From the IMG/VR virus record IMGVR_UViG_3300044568_002423: a stretch of DNA of 64,000 nucleotides; one strand, written 5' to 3'. A program made the position numbers and the translations under genes. The notes beneath the pieces were generated by a model. The model was not told the origin of the DNA, searched no databases, and worked only from the letters and a program-made list of their open reading frames with translations. This document shows positions 9,581-64,000 of this stretch, piece after piece. The stretch is from a virus. The first letter of the stretch is position 1. Each line of letters opens with the position of its first letter.

Positions 9581-9861
9581 TTTACAACAATTCCATTTGT
9601 TAATTTGACTACTTGAAAATCTTTACAATTAAATTGTTCATTTAATTTGTGTGATAAATTATGGGCATGCCCTGGATTCGAAAAACTAGTTTTCTTATAT
9701 TTTGGTCCAGGATAACTAGTAATAGTATTAAAACTCTTTAAATTAAACGCAGCATCTTTATAGAACACAGCCCATACTGCTTCTGCTTCTAAAATCTGCT
9801 CAGTCTTATATGATATCTTATCAAATTTTTCTATTAATACTGTTGGTTTGGGTCTAGCCAT
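9577..9861 (-). CDS. Hypothetical protein
   Basis: RBS AGGA; GATAAATA site upstream. Confidence 0.7.
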   Translation of the reverse strand: MARPKPTVLIEKFDKISYKTEQILEAEAVWAVFYKDAAFNLKSFNTITSYPGPKYKKTSFSNPGHAHNLSHKLNEQFNCKDFQVVKLTNGIVVK

Positions 9862-9889
9862 TATTATACGTTCCTATTAACTACGTATA

Positions 9890-9897
9890 TATTTATC
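9890..9897 (-). promoter_or_regulatory. T4-late-like promoter GATAAATA
   Basis: Same octamer recurs in intergenic gaps before genes. Confidence 0.55.
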
Positions 9898-10146
9898 TTA
9901 TTTTTCGATGCCGAATCCACCGCCGTCCATTGTAACAGAGACCACTTCATTGTCAACTGATTTTTTAAGAGAATTATACATACTTTCATAATCGGTATTT
10001 ATTTTATCCATTATTTCAGCCAGTGCTAAATTCAACAGTCTCGCTTGTTGAATTTGCATTTTAATTTCTCTTTGTTGACCTAACTCAGCTGCGCGTAACA
10101 GCTGAATAAATTGAGTGATTGGGGTTAAGTTTATTTGAGATTGCAT
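9898..10146 (-). CDS. Hypothetical protein
   Basis: ORF in operon. Confidence 0.6.
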   Translation of the reverse strand: MQSQINLTPITQFIQLLRAAELGQQREIKMQIQQARLLNLALAEIMDKINTDYESMYNSLKKSVDNEVVSVTMDGGGFGIEK

Positions 10147-10601
10147 TTAACCTTACTCGCTTCGTGTTTTGACTTAAACGGACCACGGTAATCATATCTC
10201 TCCACGGTTATCAGTTTTGGACAATACGCCAATACCCAATTTTTAAATTTAACCGCATACCATCCGGCACAATGGAAACTTTTACTATGTGGGCTTTTTG
10301 TATATAATGGTAACGTACGTCTTACATCATACATCGCGTTGTATGGTATTGACCTAGTTGGAAATCCATGACAATCAGTACTGTCATCAACTGTGCTGTT
10401 AAGTTCATTATTGTTAATAAAAAAGTTTTCACCAAAGTAAGTAGTCAATTCCTCTTTTTTACTAAACCACCAATCACCATCATGATTGGTTAAAATAAAT
10501 TTATTATTTTCTTGGTGATGTAACGTAGCAACTTTTTCACCAGCTTTCTCAACAACCCAAAATTTTCCATCTATTATTGGCTTTGCGTGTATTTCATCCA
10601 T
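10131..10601 (-). CDS. Hypothetical protein (start probably MDEIHAK at 10601)
   Basis: AGGAG RBS precedes the ATG at 10601. Confidence 0.65.
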   Translation of the reverse strand: MDEIHAKPIIDGKFWVVEKAGEKVATLHHQENNKFILTNHDGDWWFSKKEELTTYFGENFFINNNELNSTVDDSTDCHGFPTRSIPYNAMYDVRRTLPLYTKSPHSKSFHCAGWYAVKFKNWVLAYCPKLITVERYDYRGPFKSKHEASKVKCNLK

Positions 10602-10620
10602 CCCATTCTCCTGTCTGTTT

Positions 10621-10848
10621 TTAACTGACATCTTTGTATAACAAGGTTGCTGCTTCTTCAATGGTTAATGGTATAGCATCTGCGTACCCATGAAAATAGT
10701 CATCTTTTGTTTTAAATCTATAATCAGATACCAATCTGTCATTATAACGAGTAATTATATCAATTTTATAGTTACGACCACTTTTACTAGTTTTACATTT
10801 ACACAATATACCGGAAGGTGGTATATTTTTAAACCATTCGTTATTCAT
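10621..10848 (-). CDS. Hypothetical protein
   Basis: AAGGA RBS. Confidence 0.55.
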   Translation of the reverse strand: MNNEWFKNIPPSGILCKCKTSKSGRNYKIDIITRYNDRLVSDYRFKTKDDYFHGYADAIPLTIEEAATLLYKDVS

Positions 10849-10860
10849 AATAATCCTTTA

Positions 10861-11334
10861 TTATTTTTTGGTAAGTACATTAATTGCTGAAATAAAAACT
10901 GCAAATCCGGAAACTCCATCGACCGTATTTTCTACAATTTTGTATGCTGTTTCAATCGCAACTTTATGTTGTGATTGATATAAACTAATTGCGATATTGT
11001 TTTTCTTATCATATAAGACATTGATAAAATCTTTAAAAACTTCTTCGTCTGGATATCCAGTTAGCTCTTCAAAACCAATACGTTTTAGTTTTAGTATAAG
11101 TTCTTTGTTAGCTTCAACGAAGATATTTTGCTGAAATACTACACAATCAAGTTCTAATGCTGTGGCAAATATTCTGCCATGGTCGGTATTTCTAAAAGCC
11201 CACGCTCGTCCCAATTTGTGTTTGGCTACCCGTTGTTTAATTTTAAATCTATCGATCAATGGAGCAAATGGTTGATATGTTGCTACTGAACGGTTAGTTT
11301 TATTTTTTGGTGGTTGTTCAATTATATTTGACAT
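10861..11334 (-). CDS. Hypothetical protein
   Basis: 157-aa ORF in operon. Confidence 0.6.
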   Translation of the reverse strand: MSNIIEQPPKNKTNRSVATYQPFAPLIDRFKIKQRVAKHKLGRAWAFRNTDHGRIFATALELDCVVFQQNIFVEANKELILKLKRIGFEELTGYPDEEVFKDFINVLYDKKNNIAISLYQSQHKVAIETAYKIVENTVDGVSGFAVFISAINVLTKK

Positions 11335-17366: not shown

Positions 17367-20039
17367 TTAATAACTGAATAAACTATCAATTGATGTTTTT
17401 TCATAAGTATTATGCAAATTCCAATCAAGTACCCCAATCAAATTTGATACTTTCTTGTCAATGATAACTGCTTCCATTTCAGCATGTTCAAATGGTAAAT
17501 CTTTAAACCATTGGGGCAATCTAAATTCATCAACTGGATATGCCACGCTGGTAAATCCAAGTGGATTATTTTTAAGTTTACAAACAATTACTTTGGCGCC
17601 ATCAATAATATTCATTGAATACTTGTCACCATACATTTGTTTTAATACATTCCAGTTAATACTAGCTCGTACATGCCCGGGCATATTTATTTTACCCTTG
17701 ACAGATTCTTTAAGTTGGTATTTGGTAATATTATTGGCTCGTTTTGGTGAACCTTTTTCCCATCCCGGCATTGCTTTAAACTTTGCTCGAAACTCAGTGA
17801 TATGCTGTAAGACTTGTTCTTCTGGGATACCAGTGAGCACTTGTTCTAATACTTCACTTAAAAAGTTTTGTACGAACTCCGGGGTATCACTTCTTTTAAG
17901 ATCCAATCCCATTGCTTTAATTTCACCAGCTTTGCCATTCGTATCTTTACGCTTTCCTTCTTTATCGTATACCAATACTGAATATCGTTTTTTGGTAATG
18001 AATAGTGCCTTACTACCTACAATTTCTCGACCGGCTTTGATAACATCCCCTCTAGAAGGTGGACAATGAAATGAGTTTAACATGAACTGTGAAAACGTAG
18101 TATTAACTTCTTCACCAATTTCATCATATAAATTAGCTATAGATTCTCTCGTCCATTCAACATTGCCAGCAATTATTTCATTTTTTAAAGTAGGATAAGC
18201 GGAGAAATAAACAGAATCGGTATCACAGTAAATGATTGCATCGCCAGTATGATTATATTGTCCAGTTATAATCTCGTTAACTTTTGCCGCCATATGTTTA
18301 TCAATTTGCTTGCCGGTCAGGGTAACGGATTGTCCTATTCTCTTATCATAAAATCGACAGCCTTGGTTAAGTATAGCACCATATAATGAATTTAGAACAA
18401 TCTTTTTAACTAACTGACGTTTATCCCAATATTCTTCCTGTTCCTTATCACCACTGGCGATTGCTTCTTTGAGTTTTTTCTGCATATCCTTACGTTCAGC
18501 ATACCATCGCTTTAACAGTCCTGGGATAATAGCTTCACGATCATAAGCAAATATAGTACCGTTGGCACTTAACATCCATGGTTGATTATTATCAAATATA
18601 AGTTGATATACTCTATCGGCACTAGCTACATCATTACCGCCATCTTCCCAATCAATTGTTATCTCTGTTTCAATTTCTCGATTCATTACTGCTTCATATT
18701 CTAATGACCCGAATAGTTTTTCCCAAGCAGAAGTTATTGACTTACCCTTGGCTTTTTCACCTTGAAGGTAAGCATCGGTCATTGTTTGTCTTAATTGTCC
18801 AACGATTGTTTCTGGACCCATGTTTAATGCACGAATAACTGATGGATAGAGAGAGTTTATATCTAATGACCCAAGCCAATCATGCATTCCTTTTTTAGGA
18901 TAAGCCACGTAAGCACCAGCAGCGCCATCATCTTCCGCAGATTTTCTTTCAGTCCTAACACGATTAGGAACTTGAAATCCCCTACGATGTGCTTCATTGA
19001 TAATAGACTGTTCCGTTACTGCTACTGCTCCCATTGTAGTTGGCAATAGGACGGTACTTTCATGTGCTAGAACATTTGCAATATCCATGAACTTAAGTTT
19101 TTTATCTAGTCTTTCCAACAGCATGGTATCTTGTCTATTATATTCAATAAACTTTTTGAAGTCATTATTGTATAATTGGTCAAGTGTGCCTTCGTACTGT
19201 GTTTTTCTTTCACCTAATTCATATTCAGCAATGGCATCTAACCGATAACTATGTCGTTCCTCATATGTATATTTTCGATATAATTCCAAACTATCTAAGT
19301 GAACTCGTCCAACTAAATCATAAGTGACAGCCGCCTTGCCATACTTTTCATATTCACGACGTTTTGGTAACTGATCCCATAAGCACATGCGTCTAGTATC
19401 ATTTTTACTTAACGCCTTTGTAATTCTATTAACGGTATATGGTATATCAAATCCTTCTGAATTCCACCCGCTAAGTACATCAGAATCTTTAATTAAGTCT
19501 AAGAACGTGTCAAGCATTTCAGCTTCTGTTGTGAACAATAACGTATTGGGAAACTCTGCTACTAGTTCAGTTGCTTCCTCCATGGATAATGTTTTTGGCG
19601 GCACCGCCAAGCAGACTAGTGTGTTTAGCCACTGTAAATATACAGCAATTGCTGTGATTGGCATAAATGCATCATCTGGCGAAGCATATCCACGTTCAGG
19701 GTCAAAATCGACCTCGATATCGTACCACGCTACGTTTAGTTTAGGCGCATCTTTGTTTAGATAATTATCACTTAAACAAACATAAACCGGATTGATGTCA
19801 GATTCAAATATTTGTTTATTGTTATTGATAGATAATTCTTTTCGAAATTCTTTTGAATTTTTACAAACAATCTTGGAAACAGGTTTTCCATATATTGATT
19901 GATATTTACCACGTGGGTCATCCACGTAGAAAGTTCGTTTGACTGGGTATTCTTTAAATATTCTTTCGCCTGATAGGCTTCGTTCAACAAGGTTAACAAT
20001 ATCTGTATCCTTGTCATAATATGCATCGACGTAACTCAT
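17367..20039 (-). CDS. polB: Family B DNA polymerase with 3'-5' exonuclease (T4 gp43-like)
   Basis: ExoI DIE, ExoII WNSEGFD, ExoIII YNRQD, DINSLYPS, KK..LNSLYG, YCDTDS, KKRY. Confidence 0.95.
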   Translation of the reverse strand: MSYVDAYYDKDTDIVNLVERSLSGERIFKEYPVKRTFYVDDPRGKYQSIYGKPVSKIVCKNSKEFRKELSINNNKQIFESDINPVYVCLSDNYLNKDAPKLNVAWYDIEVDFDPERGYASPDDAFMPITAIAVYLQWLNTLVCLAVPPKTLSMEEATELVAEFPNTLLFTTEAEMLDTFLDLIKDSDVLSGWNSEGFDIPYTVNRITKALSKNDTRRMCLWDQLPKRREYEKYGKAAVTYDLVGRVHLDSLELYRKYTYEERHSYRLDAIAEYELGERKTQYEGTLDQLYNNDFKKFIEYNRQDTMLLERLDKKLKFMDIANVLAHESTVLLPTTMGAVAVTEQSIINEAHRRGFQVPNRVRTERKSAEDDGAAGAYVAYPKKGMHDWLGSLDINSLYPSVIRALNMGPETIVGQLRQTMTDAYLQGEKAKGKSITSAWEKLFGSLEYEAVMNREIETEITIDWEDGGNDVASADRVYQLIFDNNQPWMLSANGTIFAYDREAIIPGLLKRWYAERKDMQKKLKEAIASGDKEQEEYWDKRQLVKKIVLNSLYGAILNQGCRFYDKRIGQSVTLTGKQIDKHMAAKVNEIITGQYNHTGDAIIYCDTDSVYFSAYPTLKNEIIAGNVEWTRESIANLYDEIGEEVNTTFSQFMLNSFHCPPSRGDVIKAGREIVGSKALFITKKRYSVLVYDKEGKRKDTNGKAGEIKAMGLDLKRSDTPEFVQNFLSEVLEQVLTGIPEEQVLQHITEFRAKFKAMPGWEKGSPKRANNITKYQLKESVKGKINMPGHVRASINWNVLKQMYGDKYSMNIIDGAKVIVCKLKNNPLGFTSVAYPVDEFRLPQWFKDLPFEHAEMEAVIIDKKVSNLIGVLDWNLHNTYEKTSIDSLFSY

Positions 20040-41091: not shown

Positions 41092-41092
<1 letters not shown>
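40712..41092 (-). CDS. Small tail protein with gp9/gp10-like N-terminus
   Basis: INIG..PND.SGD.IR.AF.KVN.NF; P..GDLWYD motif. Confidence 0.7.
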
Positions 41093-51513
<10,421 letters not shown>

Positions 51514-51532
51514 TCAAATCTGATTGTTATGG

Positions 51533-51569
51533 TATTTATCAATAGGGTTTTGTAATCTTAATGTAAATA
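51533..51569. promoter_or_regulatory. Divergent late promoters
   Basis: GATAAATA (-) 51533-51540 and TGTAAATA (+) 51562-51569. Confidence 0.6.
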
Positions 51570-51573
51570 CAAT

Positions 51574-51861
51574 ATGTTTATAAAACAAGATTACGTATCT
51601 ACTGAATATCAACGAATGAGTAAATTAGGAATAATACATACTTATTTTCGAAAAAAAGAGATTATTACGTTTAAATGTGATAGTTGTGGGGAGATTTTTA
51701 CTCGTGAAAGAGGCAATATGGCTGCTAAACGAATATCTAACAATTTCTATCACGTATGTAATAACTGCGATGTTAAGAGATTTGCGCAACAAAAAGGTGT
51801 AGAAAATAAACATGTATGGGATTTACCAGTAAGTAGTCTTAAGACCATAGATCAATTATAA
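51574..51861 (+). CDS. Small Zn-finger protein
   Basis: CDSC...CNNC. Confidence 0.65.
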   Translation: MFIKQDYVSTEYQRMSKLGIIHTYFRKKEIITFKCDSCGEIFTRERGNMAAKRISNNFYHVCNNCDVKRFAQQKGVENKHVWDLPVSSLKTIDQL

Positions 51862-51882
51862 ATAACCAATAGAGGAGATATT

Positions 51883-52227
51883 ATGTTTAAATTTATAAAA
51901 GCATTACTTGGATTTACGGAAGTTGAAACTAAACCAACACCACATTTTAAAAGAGTTAACAAACCAAAAGTACTTGAAGAACCGATTAAGAAACCACGTG
52001 CCAAAAAGATCGCACCAGTAGTAATTGAGGAACCGATTAAGAAACCACGTGCCAAAAAGATCGCACCAGTAGTAATTGAGGAACCGATTAAGAAACCACG
52101 TGCTAAAAAAGTCGTACCAGTAGTAATTGAGGAACCGATTAAGAAACCACGTGCTAAAAAAGTCGTACCAGTAGTAATTGAGGAACCTATTGTTAAAAAA
52201 CGAGGAAGACCAAAAAAATCAGTATAA
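51883..52227 (+). CDS. Basic repetitive (histone H1-like) protein
   Basis: GAGGAG RBS; 17-aa EEPIKKPRAKK repeats; terminal KKRGRPKK AT-hook-like motif. Confidence 0.75.
   Translation: MFKFIKALLGFTEVETKPTPHFKRVNKPKVLEEPIKKPRAKKIAPVVIEEPIKKPRAKKIAPVVIEEPIKKPRAKKVVPVVIEEPIKKPRAKKVVPVVIEEPIVKKRGRPKKSV
51979..52188 (+). repeat. 51-bp tandem repeat, 4 copies plus partial
   Basis: Units start at 51979, 52030, 52081, 52132, 52183; AABB variant pattern. Confidence 0.9.
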
Positions 52228-52228
52228 T

Positions 52229-52253
52229 AAAAAGGGCCTCACGGGCCCTTTTT
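52229..52253. terminator. Bidirectional terminator
   Basis: AAAAAGGGCC-TCACG-GGCCCTTTTT. Confidence 0.8.
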
Positions 52254-52547
52254 TCTATCATCTAGTGAATATATTTCTTCAGTTAATTTTCTAATTGTCA
52301 ATAGCAGTTCCTGAACAAGTACATATTCATCTCGTTGATATTCAATCAGTTTAGTTATAGTATGCATAGTCCAATACCACCAATTATATGATATTATTAT
52401 CATCAATGATATGATCACCCACCAAATCGTTCTAGAATGTAAATTAGTAAACCAATCCCACCAAAATACAAGAATTATCAACCCAGTGAAAACAAAAGAA
52501 CTGGCGAGCATCCATATCTTGCGCTGCCTTATTATTTTTTCATACAC
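52239..52547 (-). CDS. Small membrane protein (2 TM)
   Basis: Two Trp-rich hydrophobic helices. Confidence 0.6.
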   Translation of the reverse strand: MYEKIIRQRKIWMLASSFVFTGLIILVFWWDWFTNLHSRTIWWVIISLMIIISYNWWYWTMHTITKLIEYQRDEYVLVQELLLTIRKLTEEIYSLDDRKKGP

Positions 52548-52549
52548 GG

Positions 52550-54016
52550 TTATTGCCTAGATATTGCCCCGAATGGTAACCATTCCCCTGGAGTTCCATC
52601 CAGTATGCATACCCATCCGATATAACTATTTTCAGTTGGATTTTGGTTCCAACAAATGTCACCCTTCACATAAGTTCCAGTAGTTGGGATACTGGTACTA
52701 TTAATAAACTTCTTATTAGCGAAACTTACATCTCCGCTGACTGATAATCCAACTGTCGGGTCAGGATTGTTAATACCAATCGACATTGGTCCAAATACCT
52801 TGACTGGTATTCGGGTATTTTGTTTGTTTCCTATTACAACTTGGGAAGAATCGGCGTAAAATACATCTGTGTCCTGAACCGATATTGTAATGGTAGTATT
52901 TGATGATATCGTGGAATTTATCTGCAATAGATCGGTAGTCATTAACGAAGAAGTAACCGAAGATAAAGTAGTATGGTTGGCAACCGTTAATGATTCCAAT
53001 ATACCAACTGATGTCAAGGAAGAATGTAGAACAGACTGTCCTAATGTGGAATTATTTAATACAGCGACCCCATTTACCATATATGCCTGGTCAATGCCGA
53101 TGTCAAGTGATTCACTAGTCCATAATCTATCAGGTTCTGGCATCATTACTAATTGTCGAGTATAACCAGAGCCAGTCCATATCAACCCTTTGCCATATAT
53201 GCTTCCATCAACAGCCGCTTTAAATTCCAATGGACTAGATCTTTCCACTCTGGTATCAGTTACAATATTGTCGGCAACGATAGACCCAAATACCCGTAAT
53301 GTAGCGGATTTATTGATTTCATCACCAATCTGTACTTCACCATTATTCTTTATAGTTATTCTTGCGGTATTATCAGTTATGATAGCGACATCATGATTTG
53401 AATATGTACCAATATTTGCCAACCCATATTTTGGACTACCTATAGATATTTCAACATTGTTATCAATGATGCTTATTGAAGAATTTGGTTCATCTGTACC
53501 TATTCCAAGACGATTATATACCGTATTGAAGAATGCAAATTCACCAATATTGGCATCTCCCAATACTGTAAGGGAGTTTAATGACCCAACTGAACGAAGA
53601 TTACTAGAAATGATACTAGAACCTAATGCGTTAGCACTAATAACTTCAGTATTATCAATCTTATAGGAAGAATCTGCGGATAGATCAATATCACTATTAC
53701 ACCATAGTCTATTACCAGTTCGGTATATCAATTGTGTGCTGCCATCCCCATAAGTCCATGAAAATCCCTTGCCATTTAACTCAGCTTCAGTATTAACAGT
53801 CCATTCACCTGGCGTGGCGCTTCCATTCTCGGTAACTATATGTTTAACATTTATGGTATCGGCCGTGATAGTGCCGGCAACTGTTAAATTACTCCGTATA
53901 CTAGTATTCCCAACAATGTCTAATGAACCAGCATGAATTACTGTTCCTTCTAGATATGTTAACGCTAGTTTTGAAATGACGACCTTATCGTCTAATATAT
54001 TAAAAATTTGGCTCAT
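52550..54016 (-). CDS. Virion structural/fibre protein
   Basis: Duplicated GKG..W...S.L.SVG.L.SLTV units; C-terminal GDICWN..P...GWVC...G.PG.W. Confidence 0.65.
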   Translation of the reverse strand: MSQIFNILDDKVVISKLALTYLEGTVIHAGSLDIVGNTSIRSNLTVAGTITADTINVKHIVTENGSATPGEWTVNTEAELNGKGFSWTYGDGSTQLIYRTGNRLWCNSDIDLSADSSYKIDNTEVISANALGSSIISSNLRSVGSLNSLTVLGDANIGEFAFFNTVYNRLGIGTDEPNSSISIIDNNVEISIGSPKYGLANIGTYSNHDVAIITDNTARITIKNNGEVQIGDEINKSATLRVFGSIVADNIVTDTRVERSSPLEFKAAVDGSIYGKGLIWTGSGYTRQLVMMPEPDRLWTSESLDIGIDQAYMVNGVAVLNNSTLGQSVLHSSLTSVGILESLTVANHTTLSSVTSSLMTTDLLQINSTISSNTTITISVQDTDVFYADSSQVVIGNKQNTRIPVKVFGPMSIGINNPDPTVGLSVSGDVSFANKKFINSTSIPTTGTYVKGDICWNQNPTENSYIGWVCILDGTPGEWLPFGAISRQ

Positions 54017-54035
54017 AGTGGGTTCTCTTTTATAG

Positions 54036-54076
54036 TATTTATCCCATGATACTTTAATACCAAAAATCTATAAATA
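54036..54076. promoter_or_regulatory. Divergent late promoters
   Basis: GATAAATA (-) 54036-54043 and TATAAATA (+) 54069-54076. Confidence 0.65.
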
Positions 54077-54097
54077 TGAGATAAGAGGATTTTTTAA

Positions 54098-56278
54098 ATG
54101 TCAGTAGCAATTGCAGATGCATATCGTAATATCATTGTAACCACGGGTTTAATTGGTACCCCAGGGACCACCACATCGACAGAAGTCGGCGGAAGTTTGA
54201 ATATAGATGCTGGATTTGGTATTAGCTTGGTAGCTGATGCTGAAAATAATAAAATCACAATTGTTAATACTGGCAATGGGACCGGCGCGTTAACTACTAT
54301 CACGGATATCAACAGCAATGCTACCTATTACCCTATTTTTACCAGAGCGCCTGGACCGGGTGATATAAATCCAATAACAAGCACATACCAGATGGATTCC
54401 ATGTATTTGGATCAAACAACAACTCCATTAACGTATAACCCATCGACAGGAACTATAACGGTAATAAACCTTGTGTTATCGGGGAATATAGCAATAGGAA
54501 CTGATGCTAATTTCACTGATTGGCCAAATGTTAAAATGGTTAGCAGTCAAGCTGATACTGGACATAGTCACACTTACAATATTGGAGTTGTCGGGGAAGC
54601 CGTTGGAAGCTCTAGTGATAGCAGTAAGTGGGGAGTTGGTATATATGGTAGAGGAAATACTGGGTCTAGTGCGTCTGGATCATCAGCTACTGGTGTTCTT
54701 GGTGATGGAGGAGTATCTAATACTGCTGACATCCAACCGGCAATTGGCGTTCGTGGATATGCAAATGATACACATAGCGGTGGTAGAAACATCGGCCTGT
54801 ATGGTTCAGCAAGTAATTCAGGCGTAAAGAACCTCGCATTGTTAATGGCAGCTGGTGATATAGAAAGTTCTGCTGCGCAAATTTGGACATTAGTCGACAA
54901 TACCGCAAGTGCGTTGAGTATAGATGCCACTGGCAAAACTGGTATATTAAAAATAGTAACAACAGACGCTGCCGAAGGTGTGTCAATGTCCGGAACACTA
55001 TCGGTTACTGGGCATGTTACTGTAGAGGGAATTACCTCCACTGGCGCTACTGGTAGTGGTAAATTTGTATTTGATAACGCACCAACGATTAGTGGTCATC
55101 CAACTATCGAAGGAATTACCTCCACTGGTGCTACTGGTAGTGGTAAATTTGTATTTGATAACGCACCAACGATTAGTGGTCATCCAACTATCGAAGGAAT
55201 TACCTCCACTGGTGCTACTGGTAGTGGTAAATTTGTATTTGATAACGCACCAACGATTAGTGGTCATCCAACTATCGAAGGAATTACCTCCACTGGTGCT
55301 ACTGGTACGGGTAAATTTGTATTTGATACAAGTCCTACCGTTACTGGTATTTCATCAAATACCGTATTAGTAGGAGCAAATGCGAACTTTACAAGATTCC
55401 CCAGTGCTGTAGCAGTTGTCAGTACGGTAGCGGCAAATCAACAAAATGAGACCGGTAATATTGGATTGATTGCAGAGGCAGTTGGTGCTGGGGCAAACAG
55501 AAACGCAGGGTTATATGGGGTTGGTTATACTTCCGGTTCTTTCAGTTGTCAAGGAGTAGTTGGTGAAGGACATGTATCCGCAACTGGAGATACCGCACCA
55601 TCAGTTGGGATCCGTGGATATGCTAATGACACACACGCCGGCGGCACAAACGTTGGTGTATATGCCGATGCTACAGGTTCGGCCATCGCCAACTATGCGT
55701 TATACCTAAACAGTGGTGATATCATTTCAGCTAGTTCTAAAATTTGGACATTAGTTGACAATACAGCATCGGCATTAAGTTTTGATGCTGTAGGCAAAAC
55801 TGGTATTCTTGCTGTCAAAACCACCGATGCCGCAGAAGGCGTAACGATGTCAGGAACACTTTCTGTAACGGGGAACGTTGGGATTGGAGTCGTACCGTCA
55901 GGCACATATAAACTCCAGGTTGCTGGCAGTTTTGCTGCTACTACAAAATCATTCTTAATTGATCATCCCACCAAAGAGGGAATGAAATTACGATATGGTA
56001 GTTTAGAAGGTCCAGAAAATGGTGTTTACATCAGAGGTAGATTGAATGGAAATAATATCATAGAACTACCAGAATATTGGACTAAATTAATAGATGAAGA
56101 TTCCATCACAGTTAATTTAACACCTATTGAAAAACATCAAAAATTATACGTAGTGGATATTGTGGATAATACTGTTATAATTGGTAATGACAATCTACTC
56201 AAAAAAGAAATCAACTGTTTCTATACAGTATTTGCAGAACGTATTGATGTAGAGAAACTTATTGTTGAGATTGAATAA
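54098..56278 (+). CDS. Tail fibre protein with internal duplications
   Basis: Duplicated ~150-aa module, 28-aa tandem repeat, C-terminal KSFLIDHP...SLEGPE domain. Confidence 0.7.
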   Translation: MSVAIADAYRNIIVTTGLIGTPGTTTSTEVGGSLNIDAGFGISLVADAENNKITIVNTGNGTGALTTITDINSNATYYPIFTRAPGPGDINPITSTYQMDSMYLDQTTTPLTYNPSTGTITVINLVLSGNIAIGTDANFTDWPNVKMVSSQADTGHSHTYNIGVVGEAVGSSSDSSKWGVGIYGRGNTGSSASGSSATGVLGDGGVSNTADIQPAIGVRGYANDTHSGGRNIGLYGSASNSGVKNLALLMAAGDIESSAAQIWTLVDNTASALSIDATGKTGILKIVTTDAAEGVSMSGTLSVTGHVTVEGITSTGATGSGKFVFDNAPTISGHPTIEGITSTGATGSGKFVFDNAPTISGHPTIEGITSTGATGSGKFVFDNAPTISGHPTIEGITSTGATGTGKFVFDTSPTVTGISSNTVLVGANANFTRFPSAVAVVSTVAANQQNETGNIGLIAEAVGAGANRNAGLYGVGYTSGSFSCQGVVGEGHVSATGDTAPSVGIRGYANDTHAGGTNVGVYADATGSAIANYALYLNSGDIISASSKIWTLVDNTASALSFDAVGKTGILAVKTTDAAEGVTMSGTLSVTGNVGIGVVPSGTYKLQVAGSFAATTKSFLIDHPTKEGMKLRYGSLEGPENGVYIRGRLNGNNIIELPEYWTKLIDEDSITVNLTPIEKHQKLYVVDIVDNTVIIGNDNLLKKEINCFYTVFAERIDVEKLIVEIE
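55028..55329 (+). repeat. 84-bp in-frame tandem repeat (~3.6 copies)
   Basis: Units at 55028, 55112, 55196, 55280 encoding GITSTGATGSGKFVFDNAPTISGHPTIE. Confidence 0.9.
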
Positions 56279-57006
56279 TGGCAACTAATTATAATTCCAA
56301 AATTATAACTAATGGATTGAGATTATGTTTAGATGCCGCTAATGTAAAAAGTTATCCTGGAACTGGAACAACTTGGTTTGATCAAAGTGGAAATAGTAAT
56401 AATAGCACAATGTATGGGACAGTGCCATATACCACAGTAGGGGGAACTTGTTTTAATTTTGCTACCGTAACAGGTAGTCCTACATCAGCAGCAAGTATGG
56501 GTTTTACATTTGCTTCAAATATGATACCAACAACTGGAAATTTTACACTCACAAGTTGGATTTATAATCCACCAGTATCTGCATCTCAAATTGTATTGTT
56601 TAGTAATGCTGGCGGTGCTGATGGATATAGATATGGTATTTCACTTAGTAATATCTATTATTTAATAAGTGGAGCTAGTAGCGTAGGTTATCAAGAAGGA
56701 TCTATAAATTTTTTATCTACATTAAGTACATCACAGTGGTATCATGTGTCTACTATTTTTAATAGAACTGGCTCGTTAGGTACGCCAACTATATATCTAT
56801 ACCTAAATGGAGTATTTCAAAATAGCATTACTATACCAACATCACAACCAGCATTTACTAATACTGCCCCTGGTATAGTCAGAGCAACTGGTGGTACAAC
56901 TTTATACACCGGAAAACTTGCTAACTTTTTTGCGTATGGAAGAGAATTGACGCCAGATGAAATATTAACTAATTTCAATGCAACTCGTGCGAGATATGGT
57001 ATATGA
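56278..57006 (+). CDS. LamG/concanavalin-A-like domain protein
   Basis: GL.L.LDAAN.KSYPG.GT.W.D.SG, W.HV, LYLNG, NFNA.R.RYGI. Confidence 0.8.
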   Translation: MATNYNSKIITNGLRLCLDAANVKSYPGTGTTWFDQSGNSNNSTMYGTVPYTTVGGTCFNFATVTGSPTSAASMGFTFASNMIPTTGNFTLTSWIYNPPVSASQIVLFSNAGGADGYRYGISLSNIYYLISGASSVGYQEGSINFLSTLSTSQWYHVSTIFNRTGSLGTPTIYLYLNGVFQNSITIPTSQPAFTNTAPGIVRATGGTTLYTGKLANFFAYGRELTPDEILTNFNATRARYGI

Positions 57007-58160
57007 GTCTTAATCATTCTCCATCTATAGTTACTGATGGGTTACAATTTTATTATGATGCAGCTAATAATAAAATTGTAACTACTGGTACTAATCTTGT
57101 ACTATCACCAACCGATATGACAAATGCAACTTATTGGGCAACAGGTGGAGGTAGCCCAGTTATTACAGCAAATGCTACCGTTGCGCCTGATGGAACTAAT
57201 ACCGCATGTTCTCTCATAAATGGGGGATCTATAAGTTTGTGGTATCAAGGATTTACAACTGCCACAATAGGAACAGGTCAACAGTTTTCATCCATATACG
57301 CAAAAGCATATACTAGTAATGTGTTCACATTAAATTCATATTATGGCGGTGATACTGAAGTAAATATCACATTCACCTTAACAGGTAATGGTTCTACTGA
57401 TGCTCCAACCCAATCTATAATTAAATTTGTTGGGAATGGTTGGTATCTTTGCACCATTTTTACACCAGTGAGAGTTAACGGAGGCGGTTCATTTGCGTAT
57501 CGTATCTGGCCTGGTGGTAGAGCAGTCTCAACAACCACTGGTAATTATTTTTGGGGTCCAACTCTTAAAAATAGTTTTACTGATTTAGTTGGTAATAATA
57601 CATTAACACCAAGTGTTCTCGCATATGACTCAGCAAATAATGGTGGAATATCATTTAATGGCACTTCAAGTTATATAATATCTCCAGAAAATGCACTACT
57701 CAATACCCAAACACCTAGTGTTGAAGTTTGGGTTAAAACAAATTCATTAACACAAAATGGGGTATGGTTTGTAAAGGGAAATATAAATGCCCAATATTCC
57801 TTATTTCAAGAGGGTGCTAATATATTGTGGCGCCAAAACGATAGCACTACTATTACCAGTTTAACGGCTCCAATATCAAACATCAATACTACACAATACG
57901 CTCATATTGTAGCAACATATACCAGTGGTGCTAGAAAAATTTATATAAATGGCGTTTTAGTTGCATCCGATACTGCCTCATTTACTATACCTAATGCTGG
58001 CAATGGAGTTTCTATCGGTGTTAGTGGTGGGTATAGCCTTGGTTCTCCAATATATTATTATAATGGTAATATCGCAATAGTAAAGGTATATAACAAAGCA
58101 TTATCAGCAGCAGAAGTAACACAGAATTTCAACGCATTAAGAGGGAGATTTAGCATATGA
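57003..58160 (+). CDS. LamG protein with an inserted jelly-roll/CBM-like domain
   Basis: Same termini as previous gene; insert with APDG, VGNGWY. Confidence 0.75.
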   Translation: MSLNHSPSIVTDGLQFYYDAANNKIVTTGTNLVLSPTDMTNATYWATGGGSPVITANATVAPDGTNTACSLINGGSISLWYQGFTTATIGTGQQFSSIYAKAYTSNVFTLNSYYGGDTEVNITFTLTGNGSTDAPTQSIIKFVGNGWYLCTIFTPVRVNGGGSFAYRIWPGGRAVSTTTGNYFWGPTLKNSFTDLVGNNTLTPSVLAYDSANNGGISFNGTSSYIISPENALLNTQTPSVEVWVKTNSLTQNGVWFVKGNINAQYSLFQEGANILWRQNDSTTITSLTAPISNINTTQYAHIVATYTSGARKIYINGVLVASDTASFTIPNAGNGVSIGVSGGYSLGSPIYYYNGNIAIVKVYNKALSAAEVTQNFNALRGRFSI

Positions 58161-60322
58161 GTTGTTATAGTGGTCCAAACGAAGTGTCAAACAATTTGGT
58201 TGGTTATTTGGATGTGTCAAATAAAAAGAGTTATAATTACAATCTTGCAGCATACACTGATAATCTTTCTGCATGGTCGGTTAATGGAACATTGACAACT
58301 GGTCAAACCGATCCATTAGGAGGGCCAAATGCTGTAAAAGTGACAGCAACTAATACCGATCCTTATATTACTCACACCAACCCAGTTGTTGTTTCAGGAA
58401 GAACGTATAATTTTTCGGTGTGGATGAAAGGTGAAGGAACAGCACTGGGTAAAAACTTTACTTTTTCGGTATATGACGGAACTGCTTGGGTATCTGGATC
58501 GTGGAGTACAAATTTTGTCATAACAAATGGTTGGAAGAGAATATCACAAACATTTACTCCATCCAATTCCGGAACAGCACAAATTAGATTTGATTGTCCA
58601 GAAAGTGGAACACCAGCCATTGGTGATGTTGTATATTTGTATGGTGTTCAATTTTCAGAAGGTTCATCATTATTACCATATATCAGTAATCCAACATTTA
58701 CAACATCAACAAAAATTTTTGATTTAAGTGGAAATAGTTTCAGTGGAATTTTGGTAAATACACCACCATATAGTTCTACAAATAATGGTTATTTAACTTT
58801 CAATGGAACTACCCAAAACATAACAACCACATCAGTTTTGGTTCCTGTAGGAGCAACGGCATACACCGTTTCTGTTTGGTATAATAGATCCAGAAATAAT
58901 GTTGTGGAAGAATTATTATCGCAATGGACAACAGCAAATTCTGGCAATTCTTTCTTTTTTGGATTTAGTAGTTCAGTTGTAAGATTTACGGATAGTTGGA
59001 ATACTATTTCCGTTGCCGGAGCAGGAACAACAGGAACTTGGAACAATTTGGTTGGAGTAAATACAGGAACTAATGCATACATATATCTCAATGGTGTATT
59101 AAGGGCAACCAAAGGTAGTGCTTTAGGTTATACCGGAACTGGGAATTTTATTATTGGAAATCAAAGTCAGAATAATGCAGAGTATTTTCAAGGTAGTATT
59201 GCTAATGTTCAAGTTTATAATGTGGCATTAACAGCTGACAAAGTAAAACAAAACTTCAATGCATTACGAGGGAGATTTGGTTCAACCGTACTTGATGCCG
59301 AATTTACTACACCCGCAACGATGAATGGGTCAACAACTCCGGTGGTAATGTCCGTAGTAACCGTCAATTCAGCTGGTTTATTTGTAGCAGTAGGAGCTGG
59401 TCAGTTTGGTTATCCAAAATATGCTACTTCAACTAATGGATACATATGGACTACACCTGCAGCGATGAACGGATCAACAACTACTACTTATCTCACTGCA
59501 ATCACAGTTAATTCAACCGGTTTATTTGTAGCAGTAGGACGTAATAATAGTGGTTATCCAGTATATGCCACTTCAACTGATGGGTCTACATGGACCACGC
59601 CTGCAGTTATGAACGGTTCAACAACTACTACTTATCTCAATTCAATTACAGTTAATTCATCTGGTTTATTTGTAGCAGTAGGTTGTAACGGTATCGACGG
59701 TATTTATTATCCATCATATGCTACTTCAACTAATGGGTCTACATGGACCACACCTGCACTTATAAACGGTTCAACAACTCCTGCGTCCATGGGCGGAGTT
59801 GCTGTTAATTCAGCAGGACTGTTTGTAGCAGTAGGAACTGATAATACTAACCATTGGCCATTATATGCTACTTCAACTGATGGGTCTACATGGACTACAC
59901 CAGCACGGATGAACGGTTCGACAGGGTGGTATGAAATGAACTCAGTCGCTGTTAATTCAGCTGGTCTATTTGTAGCAGTAGGACAGTTTTATCCTGGTGG
60001 TGCCTACCAATCAGCATATGCTACTTCAACCGATGGGTCTACATGGACTACACCTGCAGTTATGAATGGATATTCAGGATATGGACAAATGACCTCAGTC
60101 GCTGTTAATTCAGCTGGTCTATTTGTATCAGTAGGAACTGACGATAATGCTTATCCAGCATATGCTACTTCAACTAATGGGTCTACATGGACTACGCCTA
60201 TAGTTATGAACGGAACAACCACGGTTGCGACAATGAGCTCAATCACAGTCAATTCAGCTGGTTTATTTGTAACAGTAGGACGTGATAGTAATAGCCTTCC
60301 ATTATATGCTATAGCAAATTAA
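58157..60322 (+). CDS. LamG protein with an inserted CBM-like domain and a C-terminal 7-repeat beta-propeller
   Basis: LamG ends FNALRGRFG, then 7 x ~49-aa 'TTPA.MNG...VNSAGLFVAVG...YATST.GSTW'. Confidence 0.8.
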   Translation: MSCYSGPNEVSNNLVGYLDVSNKKSYNYNLAAYTDNLSAWSVNGTLTTGQTDPLGGPNAVKVTATNTDPYITHTNPVVVSGRTYNFSVWMKGEGTALGKNFTFSVYDGTAWVSGSWSTNFVITNGWKRISQTFTPSNSGTAQIRFDCPESGTPAIGDVVYLYGVQFSEGSSLLPYISNPTFTTSTKIFDLSGNSFSGILVNTPPYSSTNNGYLTFNGTTQNITTTSVLVPVGATAYTVSVWYNRSRNNVVEELLSQWTTANSGNSFFFGFSSSVVRFTDSWNTISVAGAGTTGTWNNLVGVNTGTNAYIYLNGVLRATKGSALGYTGTGNFIIGNQSQNNAEYFQGSIANVQVYNVALTADKVKQNFNALRGRFGSTVLDAEFTTPATMNGSTTPVVMSVVTVNSAGLFVAVGAGQFGYPKYATSTNGYIWTTPAAMNGSTTTTYLTAITVNSTGLFVAVGRNNSGYPVYATSTDGSTWTTPAVMNGSTTTTYLNSITVNSSGLFVAVGCNGIDGIYYPSYATSTNGSTWTTPALINGSTTPASMGGVAVNSAGLFVAVGTDNTNHWPLYATSTDGSTWTTPARMNGSTGWYEMNSVAVNSAGLFVAVGQFYPGGAYQSAYATSTDGSTWTTPAVMNGYSGYGQMTSVAVNSAGLFVSVGTDDNAYPAYATSTNGSTWTTPIVMNGTTTVATMSSITVNSAGLFVTVGRDSNSLPLYAIAN

Positions 60323-60384
60323 TAGGCAACTGCTAATATACCAGTGGTATAAATGTATAAATACAATAAAAACAGGATAAACTA

Positions 60385-61254
60385 ATGGCATTAACAGATA
60401 AAAACATTGTAATTACACCGAATATTGGAGTTGCAACTGATCCTAAAATTGTATTTTCTGGAGCCGATTCATCGACCACAGCACAAAATATTACATTAAC
60501 AACATATCCAACATCTAATGGAACTCTAAGTTTTGATGGTTCTGCTGGTCAATTATTTTCAATTACCAATAGTTTATCCGGTACTATATTTTCCGTTAAT
60601 GATATATCTGGTATGCCAAGTATCGAGGTTTTAGATTCCGGCATTGTTAAACTTGCTCAATATAGCGGTAATATTCTAGTAGGAACCGCGTATGATAATA
60701 GTGGCAATAAATTACAAGTTAATGGTAATATGACAATTAGCAATACCTTAAAACTGGTAGACCAATCAATTCCACCAACTGAGCGTGCTAGAATTAATAT
60801 TAATGGAACGTCTTTAGAATTTCATGTCAATGAAACAACTACTGCTAGACTTTTCATAGATTCTTCCGGAAACGTGATGATTGGAGCAGGAAACTTTTGG
60901 AAATATACACCAACCCCAACTACCCTGAACGCAGGAGCAAACGCAGTTACCGCAGTTCAATTGAAAGGTGAGATTTTTACAACAACAGCAACAACTGCGG
61001 TAACGATGACGTTACCGTTAGCTACAGATTTAGATACTTATTTCTCTGGCGCAGTTGCTGCGGGATTTAACATTGGTTTTGATTTCTATGTCCAAAACAA
61101 TGGAACATCTACTGGTGCAATTACCGTTTCGGTAAATACTGGTATTACAAATGGTGGTATAGCAGGAAACTTAACAGTTGCAATCGGCACTTACGCAAAG
61201 TTTAGATTAAGAAGAACTGCTGCAAATACCTATATTCTCTACAGACTATCCTAA
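60385..61254 (+). CDS. Virion structural protein
   Basis: TATAAATA at 60356-60363; GSAGQLFSIT..SG.IFSVNDISG.P motif; Thr/Gly-rich. Confidence 0.6.
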   Translation: MALTDKNIVITPNIGVATDPKIVFSGADSSTTAQNITLTTYPTSNGTLSFDGSAGQLFSITNSLSGTIFSVNDISGMPSIEVLDSGIVKLAQYSGNILVGTAYDNSGNKLQVNGNMTISNTLKLVDQSIPPTERARININGTSLEFHVNETTTARLFIDSSGNVMIGAGNFWKYTPTPTTLNAGANAVTAVQLKGEIFTTTATTAVTMTLPLATDLDTYFSGAVAAGFNIGFDFYVQNNGTSTGAITVSVNTGITNGGIAGNLTVAIGTYAKFRLRRTAANTYILYRLS

Positions 61255-61257
61255 ATA

Positions 61258-62451
61258 TCAAAGAACTTTTAGCAATATAGTATCTTCGCCAATGCGACCG
61301 TTCATTTTAGTATCGGTCGCATTAATATCATCTAAGAATTTACGTAATTGTACCTTACCGGCTTTCTTAAATTCAGTTAATTTTTCAATTGGTTTACGAA
61401 GTGTTTTTTGAATACTGGTATGTTCATTAAAACCAACAATACTTACTCCTTTAACTGTCAATGGACCAGTCATATCATCAGCGATATATCTTCCAAGCTT
61501 TCTTGTTCGGGTATTATACAACCATAACTCAGTACTGCCTATTATGTCAGTTGGATTTATCGATACCAACTTTAAAGGCTCATGTGTCTTTAGAAATTTC
61601 AATTTTTCAACTAGTTTATCCTTCGGCACTGATTTTTTAACTCGTGGTTTACGAGTAATCTTTGCCTCCTCCATTAACATAATACAAGCGGACTCGATTT
61701 CTTTATAAAAAGTCAATAAACTGGTAATTTGTTTTTTGGTACGATGACTATATCCTTCTTTTAAGTCTTCATCAATCTCACCACCACTAGAAACTTCAAT
61801 CAATTCTGCCAAACCAGACGCATAATACTCTTTTATAACACGCGCATGCGCTGGTTTAGCCTCTTTTCCTTTGAGTAAGTTAAGAACTTTAAATTGTTTT
61901 GGATCAAATGTTTCAGGATTGATCATCCAACTCTCTATGGCATCTTCAATTTCTTCTGTCATGACAAAGGTTGCTTCCCTGACACGCTCCTGAATACTAA
62001 TCACGTTTGTTGGAACTTTTTTTACTTCTTCATCAGTGTCTGTGTCAATATTACCACTTTCAATCACGGCATTGATAGAATTGACTAACCATTCTCTAAT
62101 ATTTCGACCTTCATTAAAATCATCTCGTTGTTCTGGCATACCTTTAAGAAAGTTGCGAGCAATAGAACCCATAGTGGTACTAGAACGCCAATCTTTCGTG
62201 TTCTTAAATGCGGTAATAGTTGCTTTTTCAAACTTATTCACGGTCATCCAATCAACTACCGCGCCTTTTAAATCTTTTACATTTAATAATAGGTTGTAAT
62301 ATTGCATTGATGAATGAAAATGTCGAAGAAACTCCAATGTTGTAAATGATTCATGCCCAGCCCATTCTGGACTTAAATCTTTTCCACGGTTTTCCCGTAT
62401 AGTAACACTTGTAATCTTCTGTTTTTTTGTTTTTTTAACTACTTTTGCCAT
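61258..62451 (-). CDS. Hypothetical phage protein
   Basis: 397-aa ORF; basic C-terminal KTLRKP...NGRI domain. Confidence 0.7.
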   Translation of the reverse strand: MAKVVKKTKKQKITSVTIRENRGKDLSPEWAGHESFTTLEFLRHFHSSMQYYNLLLNVKDLKGAVVDWMTVNKFEKATITAFKNTKDWRSSTTMGSIARNFLKGMPEQRDDFNEGRNIREWLVNSINAVIESGNIDTDTDEEVKKVPTNVISIQERVREATFVMTEEIEDAIESWMINPETFDPKQFKVLNLLKGKEAKPAHARVIKEYYASGLAELIEVSSGGEIDEDLKEGYSHRTKKQITSLLTFYKEIESACIMLMEEAKITRKPRVKKSVPKDKLVEKLKFLKTHEPLKLVSINPTDIIGSTELWLYNTRTRKLGRYIADDMTGPLTVKGVSIVGFNEHTSIQKTLRKPIEKLTEFKKAGKVQLRKFLDDINATDTKMNGRIGEDTILLKVL

Positions 62452-62490
62452 GTGGTCATCCGTTGATTTATACTTAATTAATTATACAAA

Positions 62491-62697
62491 TTAGATAGGT
62501 TTTGTACGAACCGTTTCGTTACTCATCCATGCCTTTTTTATCATACTTGGTTTGTCTGGACGAGCTGAACAGTATCGACAATTTAACTCTGGCGAACATT
62601 TGGTATCTTCCAACCAGGCATTGCATAATTCACAATAATACGAATCGTATTCATAGTTATATTTTCGTTCACTGCCACATTTACACAGATTACTCAT
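62491..62697 (-). CDS. Small Cys-rich protein
   Basis: CKC, CELC, C...C.YC..RP. Confidence 0.55.
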   Translation of the reverse strand: MSNLCKCGSERKYNYEYDSYYCELCNAWLEDTKCSPELNCRYCSARPDKPSMIKKAWMSNETVRTKPI

Positions 62698-62705
62698 TGG
62701 AAATA

Positions 62706-63083
62706 TTAATTACTACGTACTAGATATGGATTTAATTCAGGCGCTTTCCAATCTGCAGGTTTCAATACTTTACCATCAGCACGTTTATTAACTTTACCTG
62801 TTGATGAATCAATTTTAGCAAAATTAGTACCCATAACTTCATCCCACGCACCTTGTGCATCAAATCCTGCTGAATGTATCGCACCAATAGTAACTACTAA
62901 AATATCAATAAGGGCATCTAGTTGTTCAGCACGATCATCTACAATCAATGCTTCTTGTAATTCATCAAATTCTTCCCTAATCAGTGTTAAGTACATATTG
63001 TACTGATCTTCATTGTATGAATCAACAGTTTGATCACACGCTAGCATGAATGTTTCTTGGTCTTTTATAATTTCGATTGTCAT
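62706..63083 (-). CDS. MazG/HisE-like all-alpha NTP pyrophosphohydrolase
   Basis: LIREEFDEL, DALID, V..TNFAK, DGKVLKP..WK.P. Confidence 0.8.
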   Translation of the reverse strand: MTIEIIKDQETFMLACDQTVDSYNEDQYNMYLTLIREEFDELQEALIVDDRAEQLDALIDILVVTIGAIHSAGFDAQGAWDEVMGTNFAKIDSSTGKVNKRADGKVLKPADWKAPELNPYLVRSN

Positions 63084-63094
63084 TTTATTTTCGC

Positions 63095-63307
63095 TTATCG
63101 TTGGTGTTGTATTAAAGGTGGTTGTCCTGGTTTCAAGTGCCAATCATATTCCTGGCAACAATCTACACAGATCTTTTTATCAAATGTTCTTAAAAGTAGC
63201 ATAAGTTGACTACATTTTGGACATCTGTTTTCTGGGTAATCAAGGTTATTAGTTAGGTGTTGGCCACAGGCGTGGCAACTATCGTTGTGAGGTGTTGTGT
63301 CATCCAT
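63095..63307 (-). CDS. Small Zn-ribbon protein
   Basis: Three CxxC pairs; own promoter. Confidence 0.55.
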   Translation of the reverse strand: MDDTTPHNDSCHACGQHLTNNLDYPENRCPKCSQLMLLLRTFDKKICVDCCQEYDWHLKPGQPPLIQHQR

Positions 63308-63328
63308 AACTTATTTTATCCATGATGT

Positions 63329-63357
63329 ATTATATAGTAAAATAATGGTGATGTCAA
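63329..63357 (-). promoter_or_regulatory. Consensus sigma70 promoter
   Basis: TTGACA-17-TATAAT exact. Confidence 0.85.
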
Positions 63358-63371
63358 GTAATTTTGTGTGA

Positions 63372-63403
63372 CAAAAAAGCCGCTTATATTGCTACAAGCG
63401 GCT
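63372..63403 (-). terminator. Terminator directly after pmoC
   Basis: AGCCGCTT-10 nt-AAGCGGCT followed by TTTTT on the minus strand. Confidence 0.8.
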
Positions 63404-63409
63404 AATATA

Positions 63410-64000
63410 TTAAGCTAAGTCTTTTTTCAGAAGTTTAGCAATAGCTTGAACTTCTATGTTTACAACACCTAATACACCCAAAGCAGCCCATCCGAAGAAT
63501 ACGAAACCGTAGTGTAAAGGAGCAACAAACAATTCTTCCATAAACCAGAAAGTGTGACCCCATTCGTTCAAGCCAACATTTGGCAAGATCATGAAAGGAC
63601 CAACTACTGCTACTAAATACTGAAGTGACAAACCTTTTTGATAGGTTGGCAATCTAGTTTTAGCATATAAGAATGCAGCACCACCAGTGATAATATAGAT
63701 TGGATAGCTCAAGTAGAATTCAATAACATGACTTGGTGTAAAGTCAGTGTCACGAACAATAGTTTGATGCCATGTACCATCTTGCTCAGTGAAGTAGCTA
63801 GCGCCATAATAAATAGCGATACCGTACATAACTAACCAAGTCCAATGAGTCATATGTCTTCTTAACTCTTCTCTTGGAGTGATTGACATCACTTTACGGT
63901 CACGAGATTTCCAAAGATAGCCCCACAAAATACCAGCAGTCGATACTTCTAGAACAAACTCAATATAAAGAAAGTTCATCCAATATGTTTCGAATTCAGG
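63410..64000 (-). CDS. pmoC: Particulate methane monooxygenase subunit C (5' end beyond window)
   Basis: PEFETYWMN, ASYFTEQDGTWHQTIVRDTDFTPSH, PNVGLNEWGHTFWFMEELFVAPLHYGFVFFGW. Confidence 0.97.
   Translation of the reverse strand, partial: PEFETYWMNFLYIEFVLEVSTAGILWGYLWKSRDRKVMSITPREELRRHMTHWTWLVMYGIAIYYGASYFTEQDGTWHQTIVRDTDFTPSHVIEFYLSYPIYIITGGAAFLYAKTRLPTYQKGLSLQYLVAVVGPFMILPNVGLNEWGHTFWFMEELFVAPLHYGFVFFGWAALGVLGVVNIEVQAIAKLLKKDLA

Follow-up and report, generated by a model that had tools for sequence, protein, structure and literature searches.

A stand-alone pmoC in a large freshwater phage joins a phage-type N-terminal tip to a gene body nearly identical to a methanotroph operon copy

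A 64,000-nt stretch of viral DNA (IMG/VR record IMGVR_UViG_3300044568_002423, hereafter the window) ends inside a gene for PmoC. The sole long open reading frame between positions 63410 and 64000 lies on the minus strand, is open at the window end and terminates with TAA at 63410-63412. Its 196-residue translation matched the AmoC family (Pfam PF04896) with an E-value of 1.8e-103; the score of 345.6 bits exceeds the cut-off of 26.7, and the match spans positions 52-245 of the 245-position profile. The solved PmoC chains 6cxh_C and 7s4l_C align to the fragment over their residues 55-250 with no gap (E about 1e-125; 3e-125 for 6cxh_C). PmoC carries the CuC and CuD sites, the proposed catalytic centre in current structural work. 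All six ligands of these sites are kept in the fragment (Table 1), numbered as in 1yew_C from M. capsulatus Bath by an offset from the 196-residue fragment. An earlier note on this DNA had described an intact, stand-alone pmoC with D..WH...H (CuC) and N...H...H (CuD) ligands. The location of the six ligand codons and the AmoC profile match bear out the gene and its metal sites, but the whole gene is not visible in the window: the first 52 codons (156 bases) lie beyond its end, so that the window by itself cannot show an intact 5′ end, and the strand had been left unstated. The window gene is confirmed as a genuine pmoC of the gammaproteobacterial, type Ia sort. In a second assembly of the same region, L161, the full gene is a 248-codon open reading frame with no stops and no intron (L161 1351-2097). 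Phage PmoC has the six ligands in common with the operon PmoC of type Ia methanotrophs (6cxh_C, 7s4l_C), is two residues shorter than these 250-residue chains and, unlike them, is encoded without an adjacent pmoA or pmoB.

The earlier note had also placed a terminator and phage genes directly after pmoC, and this arrangement was recovered. A hairpin starts 6 bases past the stop codon, resembles an intrinsic terminator and would close the pmoC transcription unit; a predicted sigma-70 promoter beyond it, recognised by its consensus match, would restart transcription of the downstream phage genes, which include members of phrog_25658, phrog_671 and phrog_11903. Homologues of the zinc-ribbon protein (phrog_25658) are also found near pmoC in the related phage contigs L008, L009, L012 and L034. 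On the other side of the gene, L161 has an AGGAG ribosome-binding site before pmoC and a gene for an NAD-dependent DNA ligase upstream. In L161 the 77-base spacer that precedes pmoC showed no recognisable sigma-70-type promoter, and pmoC may be transcribed from a phage-specific promoter or by read-through from the ligase gene. A loose motif for pqqA-like mini-genes near pmoC found none in the window, in L161 or in five relatives. When the PmoA and PmoB proteins of the bacterial contig L081 were compared with the 64-kb window by tblastn, no match was obtained (best E 0.36), in agreement with the earlier reading that neither pmoA nor pmoB lies downstream.

Table 1. Features of the phage pmoC locus and of the introns in related phage pmoC genes. 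Ligands are given as fragment residue = 1yew_C residue.
Feature	Sequence	Position	Strand	Evidence or remark
pmoC, 3′ part	window	63410..64000	minus	codons 53-248 of 248 plus stop; Pfam AmoC, PDB match
CuC ligand D74 = D156	window	63779-81	minus	codon
CuC ligand H78 = H160	window	63767-69	minus	codon
CuC ligand H91 = H173	window	63728-30	minus	codon
CuD ligand N145 = N227	window	63566-68	minus	codon
CuD ligand H149 = H231	window	63554-56	minus	codon
CuD ligand H163 = H245	window	63512-14	minus	codon
Terminator-like hairpin and T run	window	63368..63403 (stem 63403-63378)	minus	11 pairs, 5 G-C, loop 4, TTTTTTG
Predicted sigma-70 consensus promoter, TTGACA-17-TATAAT	window	63357-63329	minus	12/12 matches
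Cys-rich zinc-ribbon protein, 70 residues	window	63095..63307	minus	phrog_25658 E 4.1e-08; weak Pfam Phage_zn_bind_2
MazG-like nucleotide pyrophosphohydrolase	window	62706..63143	minus	Pfam PRA-PH E 2.5e-10; phrog_671 E 3.4e-32
Cys-rich protein, 68 residues	window			among the genes downstream of pmoC (lower coordinates)
Phage protein, 397 residues, function not assigned	window	61258..62451	minus	phrog_11903 E 2.4e-58
Group I intron	L017	10497-10754		Rfam match 10487-10707, 87.8 bits
Group I intron	L036	10453-10701		Rfam match 10443-10652, 69.2 bits
Group I intron	L034	10481-10731		Rfam match 10471-10681, 82.9 bits
Group I intron	L033	9721-9973		Rfam match 9704-9923, 93.9 bits
Group I intron, first	L069			Rfam match 10450-10656, 86.6 bits
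Group I intron, second	L069			Rfam match 10750-10964, 90.6 bits

The remainder of the window is of phage character. Its family B DNA polymerase (phrog_262) is closest to those of jumbo phages of 350-490 kb, and it also codes for a clamp-loader-like ATPase, a 5′-3′ exonuclease, an HNH endonuclease and virion and fibre-like proteins. The window begins at least 97 kb into its piece, which is hence at least 161 kb long. Its GC content is 36.5% and that of its pmoC 38.1%; GC was considered as a sign of foreign origin of pmoC and found uninformative, as host pmoC genes likewise have 38-41% GC. No tRNA genes were found in the 64-kb window. In the related phages L017 (452-2202) and L036 (741-1080), tRNA genes are clustered some 8-9 kb upstream of pmoC. 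The best explanation of these features is that the window belongs to a large, low-GC, T4-related freshwater phage. Large freshwater phages with pmoC only were, as the earlier note stated, a known concept: lone phage pmoC in freshwater lakes has been published, with 22 genomes and pmoC-phage sizes of 159-527 kb (Chen et al. 2020, Nat Microbiol 5:1504, PMC7674155). A tblastn search with PmoC gave no match in the GenBank phage collection, indicating that the published pmoC phages are absent from that collection.

Since the window ends inside the gene, further assemblies of the locus were sought through the exact 397-residue phrog_11903 protein, and three further contigs were found. L161 (JGI 3300042892, 4,602 bases) corresponds to window 60905-64000 with one mismatch in 3,096 bases (99.97%), which lies outside pmoC, and runs 1,506 bases past the window end, so that both pmoC junctions are contained in one contig; the overlapping pmoC sequence is identical in the two. 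L162 (Logan SRR27428643) matches window 60163-63436 at 100% identity, with its end 27 bases inside pmoC. The third contig (3300059473), placed by gene coordinates only, begins about 93 bases into the 3′ end of pmoC. The earlier note had raised a chimeric assembly at ~63.4 kb, bacterial chromosome upstream and a disrupted 5′ end as ways in which its reading could fail, and these contigs speak against each. The junction of pmoC with the terminator recurs in L161, L162 and, by gene coordinates, the third contig, and a chimera is unlikely because further, independent assemblies share this 3′ junction. Upstream, the ligase of L161 shares just 29-32% identity with its counterparts in five candidate host metagenome-assembled genomes (MAGs) and ∼31% with phage ligases; judged by these identities, the DNA upstream of pmoC is not host chromosome. 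The 5′ end in L161 is that of the complete frame described above, preceded by its ribosome-binding site. An exact 42-base pmoC word was absent from IMG/VR and an exact junction word was absent from genome_contigs. In protein clusters, the exact phage PmoC was found on one listed contig, versus 75 contigs for the exact PmoC of L081.

L081, the contig of a Methylococcaceae MAG from a different sample, has pmoC at the head of a canonical pmoC-pmoA-pmoB operon, whose intergenic regions are typical for bacterial loci. The window pmoC differs from that of L081 at 4 of 594 aligned bases (99.3% DNA identity), and over the gene body, compared between L161 and L081, there are seven differences in 720 bases, six synonymous and one a V/L exchange. 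At the amino-acid level, window PmoC is 99.5% identical to L081 and 89-98% identical to 79 other Methylococcales loci; the gene is 85-92% identical in DNA to pmoC of many Methylococcales and Methylobacter genomes. The similarity to L081 ends within three bases past the stop codon, ahead of the hairpin, and the regions upstream of pmoC in L161 and L081 are unrelated. The phylogeny against Methylococcales proposed in the earlier note was computed with IQ-TREE on a MAFFT alignment of 114 sequences and 570 bases. Phage pmoC and L081 emerged as sisters with support of 100/100, separated by a path of 0.009, compared with 0.14 to the next sequence. The suggestion of a type I gammaproteobacterial methanotroph as host is thereby strongly supported: because phage pmoC pairs with a Methylococcaceae operon copy, there is strong sequence-based support for a type I, Methylobacter-like methanotroph (Methylococcaceae) as the host. 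The check by CRISPR spacers yielded nothing, with no spacer-like match in five candidate host MAGs for window 44001-64000. In the same comparison pmoC alone was matched, plus short matches at chance level, and no prophage was found. The ∼99% DNA match points to a very recent gene exchange between phage and host, and at such identity the intactness of pmoC is uninformative on selection in this lineage. A minor observation among the bacterial loci concerns L083 (JAQUQM010000129.1), a 5.9-kb contig with a Methylococcales-type pmoC of 97% amino-acid identity to the window, which is filed in a MAG labelled Dehalococcoidia, probably through a binning error.

The near-identity to L081 does not extend to the start of the gene. 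The phage protein begins MATTTEALT, compared with MAATTESVKTD in L081, and this tip, comprising the first 27 bases of the phage gene and 33 of the host gene, has 7 mismatches and 6 gap columns, a divergence far above the 7 in 720 of the body (Fisher p = 1e-7). A tip motif, MA[AV]T[TI]E[SQ]V[KR], was present in all 80 bacterial loci and in 0 of 79 viral loci, and is absent from the phage copy studied here (L161:1351-1377). The N-terminal tip is therefore a clean signature that separates host from phage copies. Together with the nearly unchanged body, the diverged tip suggests that a resident phage gene was overwritten by a host allele.

The surroundings of pmoC were compared across related phages. 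At least 120 viral contigs in IMG/VR carry pmoC, and 80 of these were compared with 80 bacterial loci. With the L081 proteins as tblastn queries, neither PmoA nor PmoB was detected within 10 kb of pmoC in any of the 80 viral loci; as a positive control, the same search recovered PmoA in 74/80 and PmoB in 70/80 bacterial loci. A complete relative of 372 kb likewise gave no PmoA match in a Pfam family search, a result of little weight as the controls of that search were silent too. Downstream of pmoC, homologues of the MazG-like protein and of phrog_11903 follow in the same order in L003/L006, L008, L009/L016, L012/L039, L017/L018 and L035. This syntenic block has ∼70% DNA identity and 57-69% protein identity to the window (57-67% for the MazG-like protein, 58-69% for phrog_11903). 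In each relative inspected pmoC is preceded by an AGGAG-type ribosome-binding site, and in several it is followed by a hairpin; the NAD-dependent ligase upstream is not common to the relatives. Its conserved position suggests that, in a family of phages, pmoC is a cassette resident at this locus. The pmoC gene of the window is 78-83% identical in DNA to those of the syntenic relatives, whose genes fall in other clades of the tree. In AU tests, for which the groups were named after the first tree had been seen, a single clade was rejected for the syntenic phage copies (p = 3e-7) and for all gamma-type viral copies (p = 2.6e-4). L009/L016, the closest relatives by backbone (phrog_11903 protein 69% identical), encode the gamma-type PmoC that is most distant from the window's, at 84%. 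The pmoC tree and the phage backbone thus conflict at a shared locus. In L009 a gene for a GIY-YIG-type homing endonuclease (phrog_314, E 4.8e-29) is situated directly after pmoC (L009:10621-11421, minus strand).

In several related IMG/VR phages pmoC is split by group I introns (Rfam RF00028, 69-94 bits, all above the gathering score) at no fewer than five sites, most of them in the segment of the CuD ligands (Table 1). For L017, L033, L034 and L036 a splice solution was obtained in which U precedes the intron and G is its last base, restoring a frame of 250-258 codons. No interruption was seen in the matched 588-base part of pmoC in any of the 80 bacterial loci, nor in the window pmoC. Such introns probably explain the ‘fragmented’ phage pmoC genes reported by Chen et al. 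2020 (PMC7674155), and no publication combining pmoC and group I introns was found in the literature searched. L034, one of the phages with an intron-split pmoC, also contains a tmRNA-like gene, scoring below the Rfam beta_tmRNA gathering score and above the permuted-tmRNA one, and a Polynucleobacter-1 RNA motif of 86 bits (3677-4067 and 19155-19298).

Taken together, these data lead us to propose, with a probability of about 0.73, that the window carries a lone pmoC cassette in a large phage of a Methylobacter-like host, that the gene body is a very recent copy from the host operon which most likely overwrote an older resident pmoC by homologous recombination, and that the gene would supply PmoC during infection. 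An ancestral phage would have gained the pmoC cassette, which stayed at this locus. Later, during infection, a host allele would have replaced the gene body by homologous recombination, leaving the phage-type first 9 codons in place. Phage PmoC would be inserted into host membranes and join the PmoA and PmoB of the host, and its near-identity to the host subunit would let the parts fit. Particulate methane monooxygenase could in this way be kept working, providing energy and carbon while phage particles form. A broader form of this proposal, which we put forward tentatively and at somewhat less than even odds, is that phage pmoC is a resident cassette which homologous recombination during infection overwrites repeatedly with the current host's operon allele, a process that would match it to PmoA and PmoB and erase introns and would always spare the phage-specific tip. 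The tip may mark a phage-specific function, which might be, for example, a changed insertion into the membrane or a way for pmoC translation to escape host control.

A 99% DNA identity to the operon copy that ends at the stop codon could also have arisen had a host pmoC been gained very recently by illegitimate recombination, as a neutral and possibly transient hitch-hiker. The changes are too few for any selection signal, the upstream ligase is not shared among the relatives, and the 3′ boundary of identity lies at the stop, where the relatives give little flanking similarity for a crossover, all of which would suit a fresh capture. Such an event is harder to reconcile with several related phages, in which pmoC is followed by the same block of MazG and phrog_11903, or with the first 27 bases, which are far more diverged than the body and are without the motif of all bacterial copies. 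We regard it as unlikely, and less likely than the overwriting of a resident pmoC, because the cuts would have to coincide almost exactly with the start and stop codons, and because the old-looking tip would be left unexplained. The altered tip in all phage copies might instead indicate that phage PmoC does not sustain catalysis and has a regulatory or assembly role like that of bacterial orphan pmoC, or that it interferes with the host enzyme. Bacteria do keep extra stand-alone pmoC copies of unclear role, a parallel raised by Chen et al. (PMC7674155); here, however, the body matches the operon-linked copy and not the orphan one, all six ligands are kept, and other phage pmoC genes were expressed in situ together with late genes (PMC7674155), which renders a non-catalytic role quite improbable. 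Although phage scaffolds are reported often to end at pmoC owing to very similar bacterial copies (Chen et al., PMC7674155), and although L162, the third contig and the window all break within the gene, as would be expected if the assembly graph is tangled by host and phage copies, an assembly artefact in which a host-like body was threaded in from abundant host reads, the true phage pmoC being more diverged or absent, is very improbable indeed, as pmoC is identical in two assemblies, flanked by phage DNA at both ends in L161 and at the 3′ end in the window, with four common differences from L081 where the two overlap, L161 joins the phage-type tip to the body, and two clean path switches at the gene ends would be needed in separate assemblies.

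The proposal of a resident cassette with a recently overwritten body fits within what has been described for pmoC phages. In the study of Chen et al. (PMC7674155) the gamma-type pmoC-phages of Lake Rotsee have a Methylobacter host, and the pmoC-phages keep the ligands, encode PmoC >90% similar to that of coexisting methanotrophs and have diverged termini. The present phage is like them in being large and of low GC, in its lone pmoC, its CuC ligands and its diverged N terminus, and in assemblies that break at pmoC. What is added here is the ∼99% DNA match to a named operon copy, a sharp boundary after codon 9 and the conflict between tree and backbone; the available portion of the text of Chen et al. 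2020 (PMC7674155) contains a hint of allele exchange, in the very similar copies with diverged termini, and describes no within-gene boundary. The known concept of pmoC phages is left unchanged by the present case. For this DNA, the gene fixes the ecology of the whole window as that of a jumbo phage of a lake methanotroph, and its 99% match in DNA to the pmoC of a pmoCAB operon assigns the host unusually directly. In combination with the mosaic tip and the tree-backbone conflict, this match constitutes concrete sequence evidence of an ongoing exchange of pmoC alleles between phage and host.

Cyanophage psbA, which encodes D1 of photosystem II, is comparable in that T4-like phages carry, alone, a metal-site-bearing membrane subunit of an energy-harvesting enzyme of the host; the enzyme and the hosts differ. 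Alleles of psbA are exchanged between host and phage, and some copies contain group I introns. Rapid turnover is established for D1 and not for PmoC. Phages with amoC, according to the available part of a preprint (bioRxiv 10.64898/2026.06.18.733297), are likewise large lake phages with the C subunit alone of a copper membrane monooxygenase; unlike the present phage, they carry a gene of ammonia monooxygenase and have nitrifier hosts.

Some other genes of the window were also noted. Between 26936 and 30050, on the minus strand, a ClpA/ClpB-like double AAA+ ATPase of 755 residues (Clp_N, AAA, AAA_2, ClpB_D2-small) is encoded beside a full DnaJ of 275 residues, and the two look like a phage-encoded chaperone pair; an assignment of the 755-residue ATPase as FtsH was ruled out by its ClpA/ClpB-like domains. 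A single open reading frame of 3,472 codons occupies 41092-51510 on the minus strand. On the plus strand, at 58157-60322, a fibre-like protein of 721 residues combines a Laminin_G_3 domain with about nine tandem BNR-like repeats, which are built on a YATSTDGSTWTTP-like unit and cross-match in the DNA.
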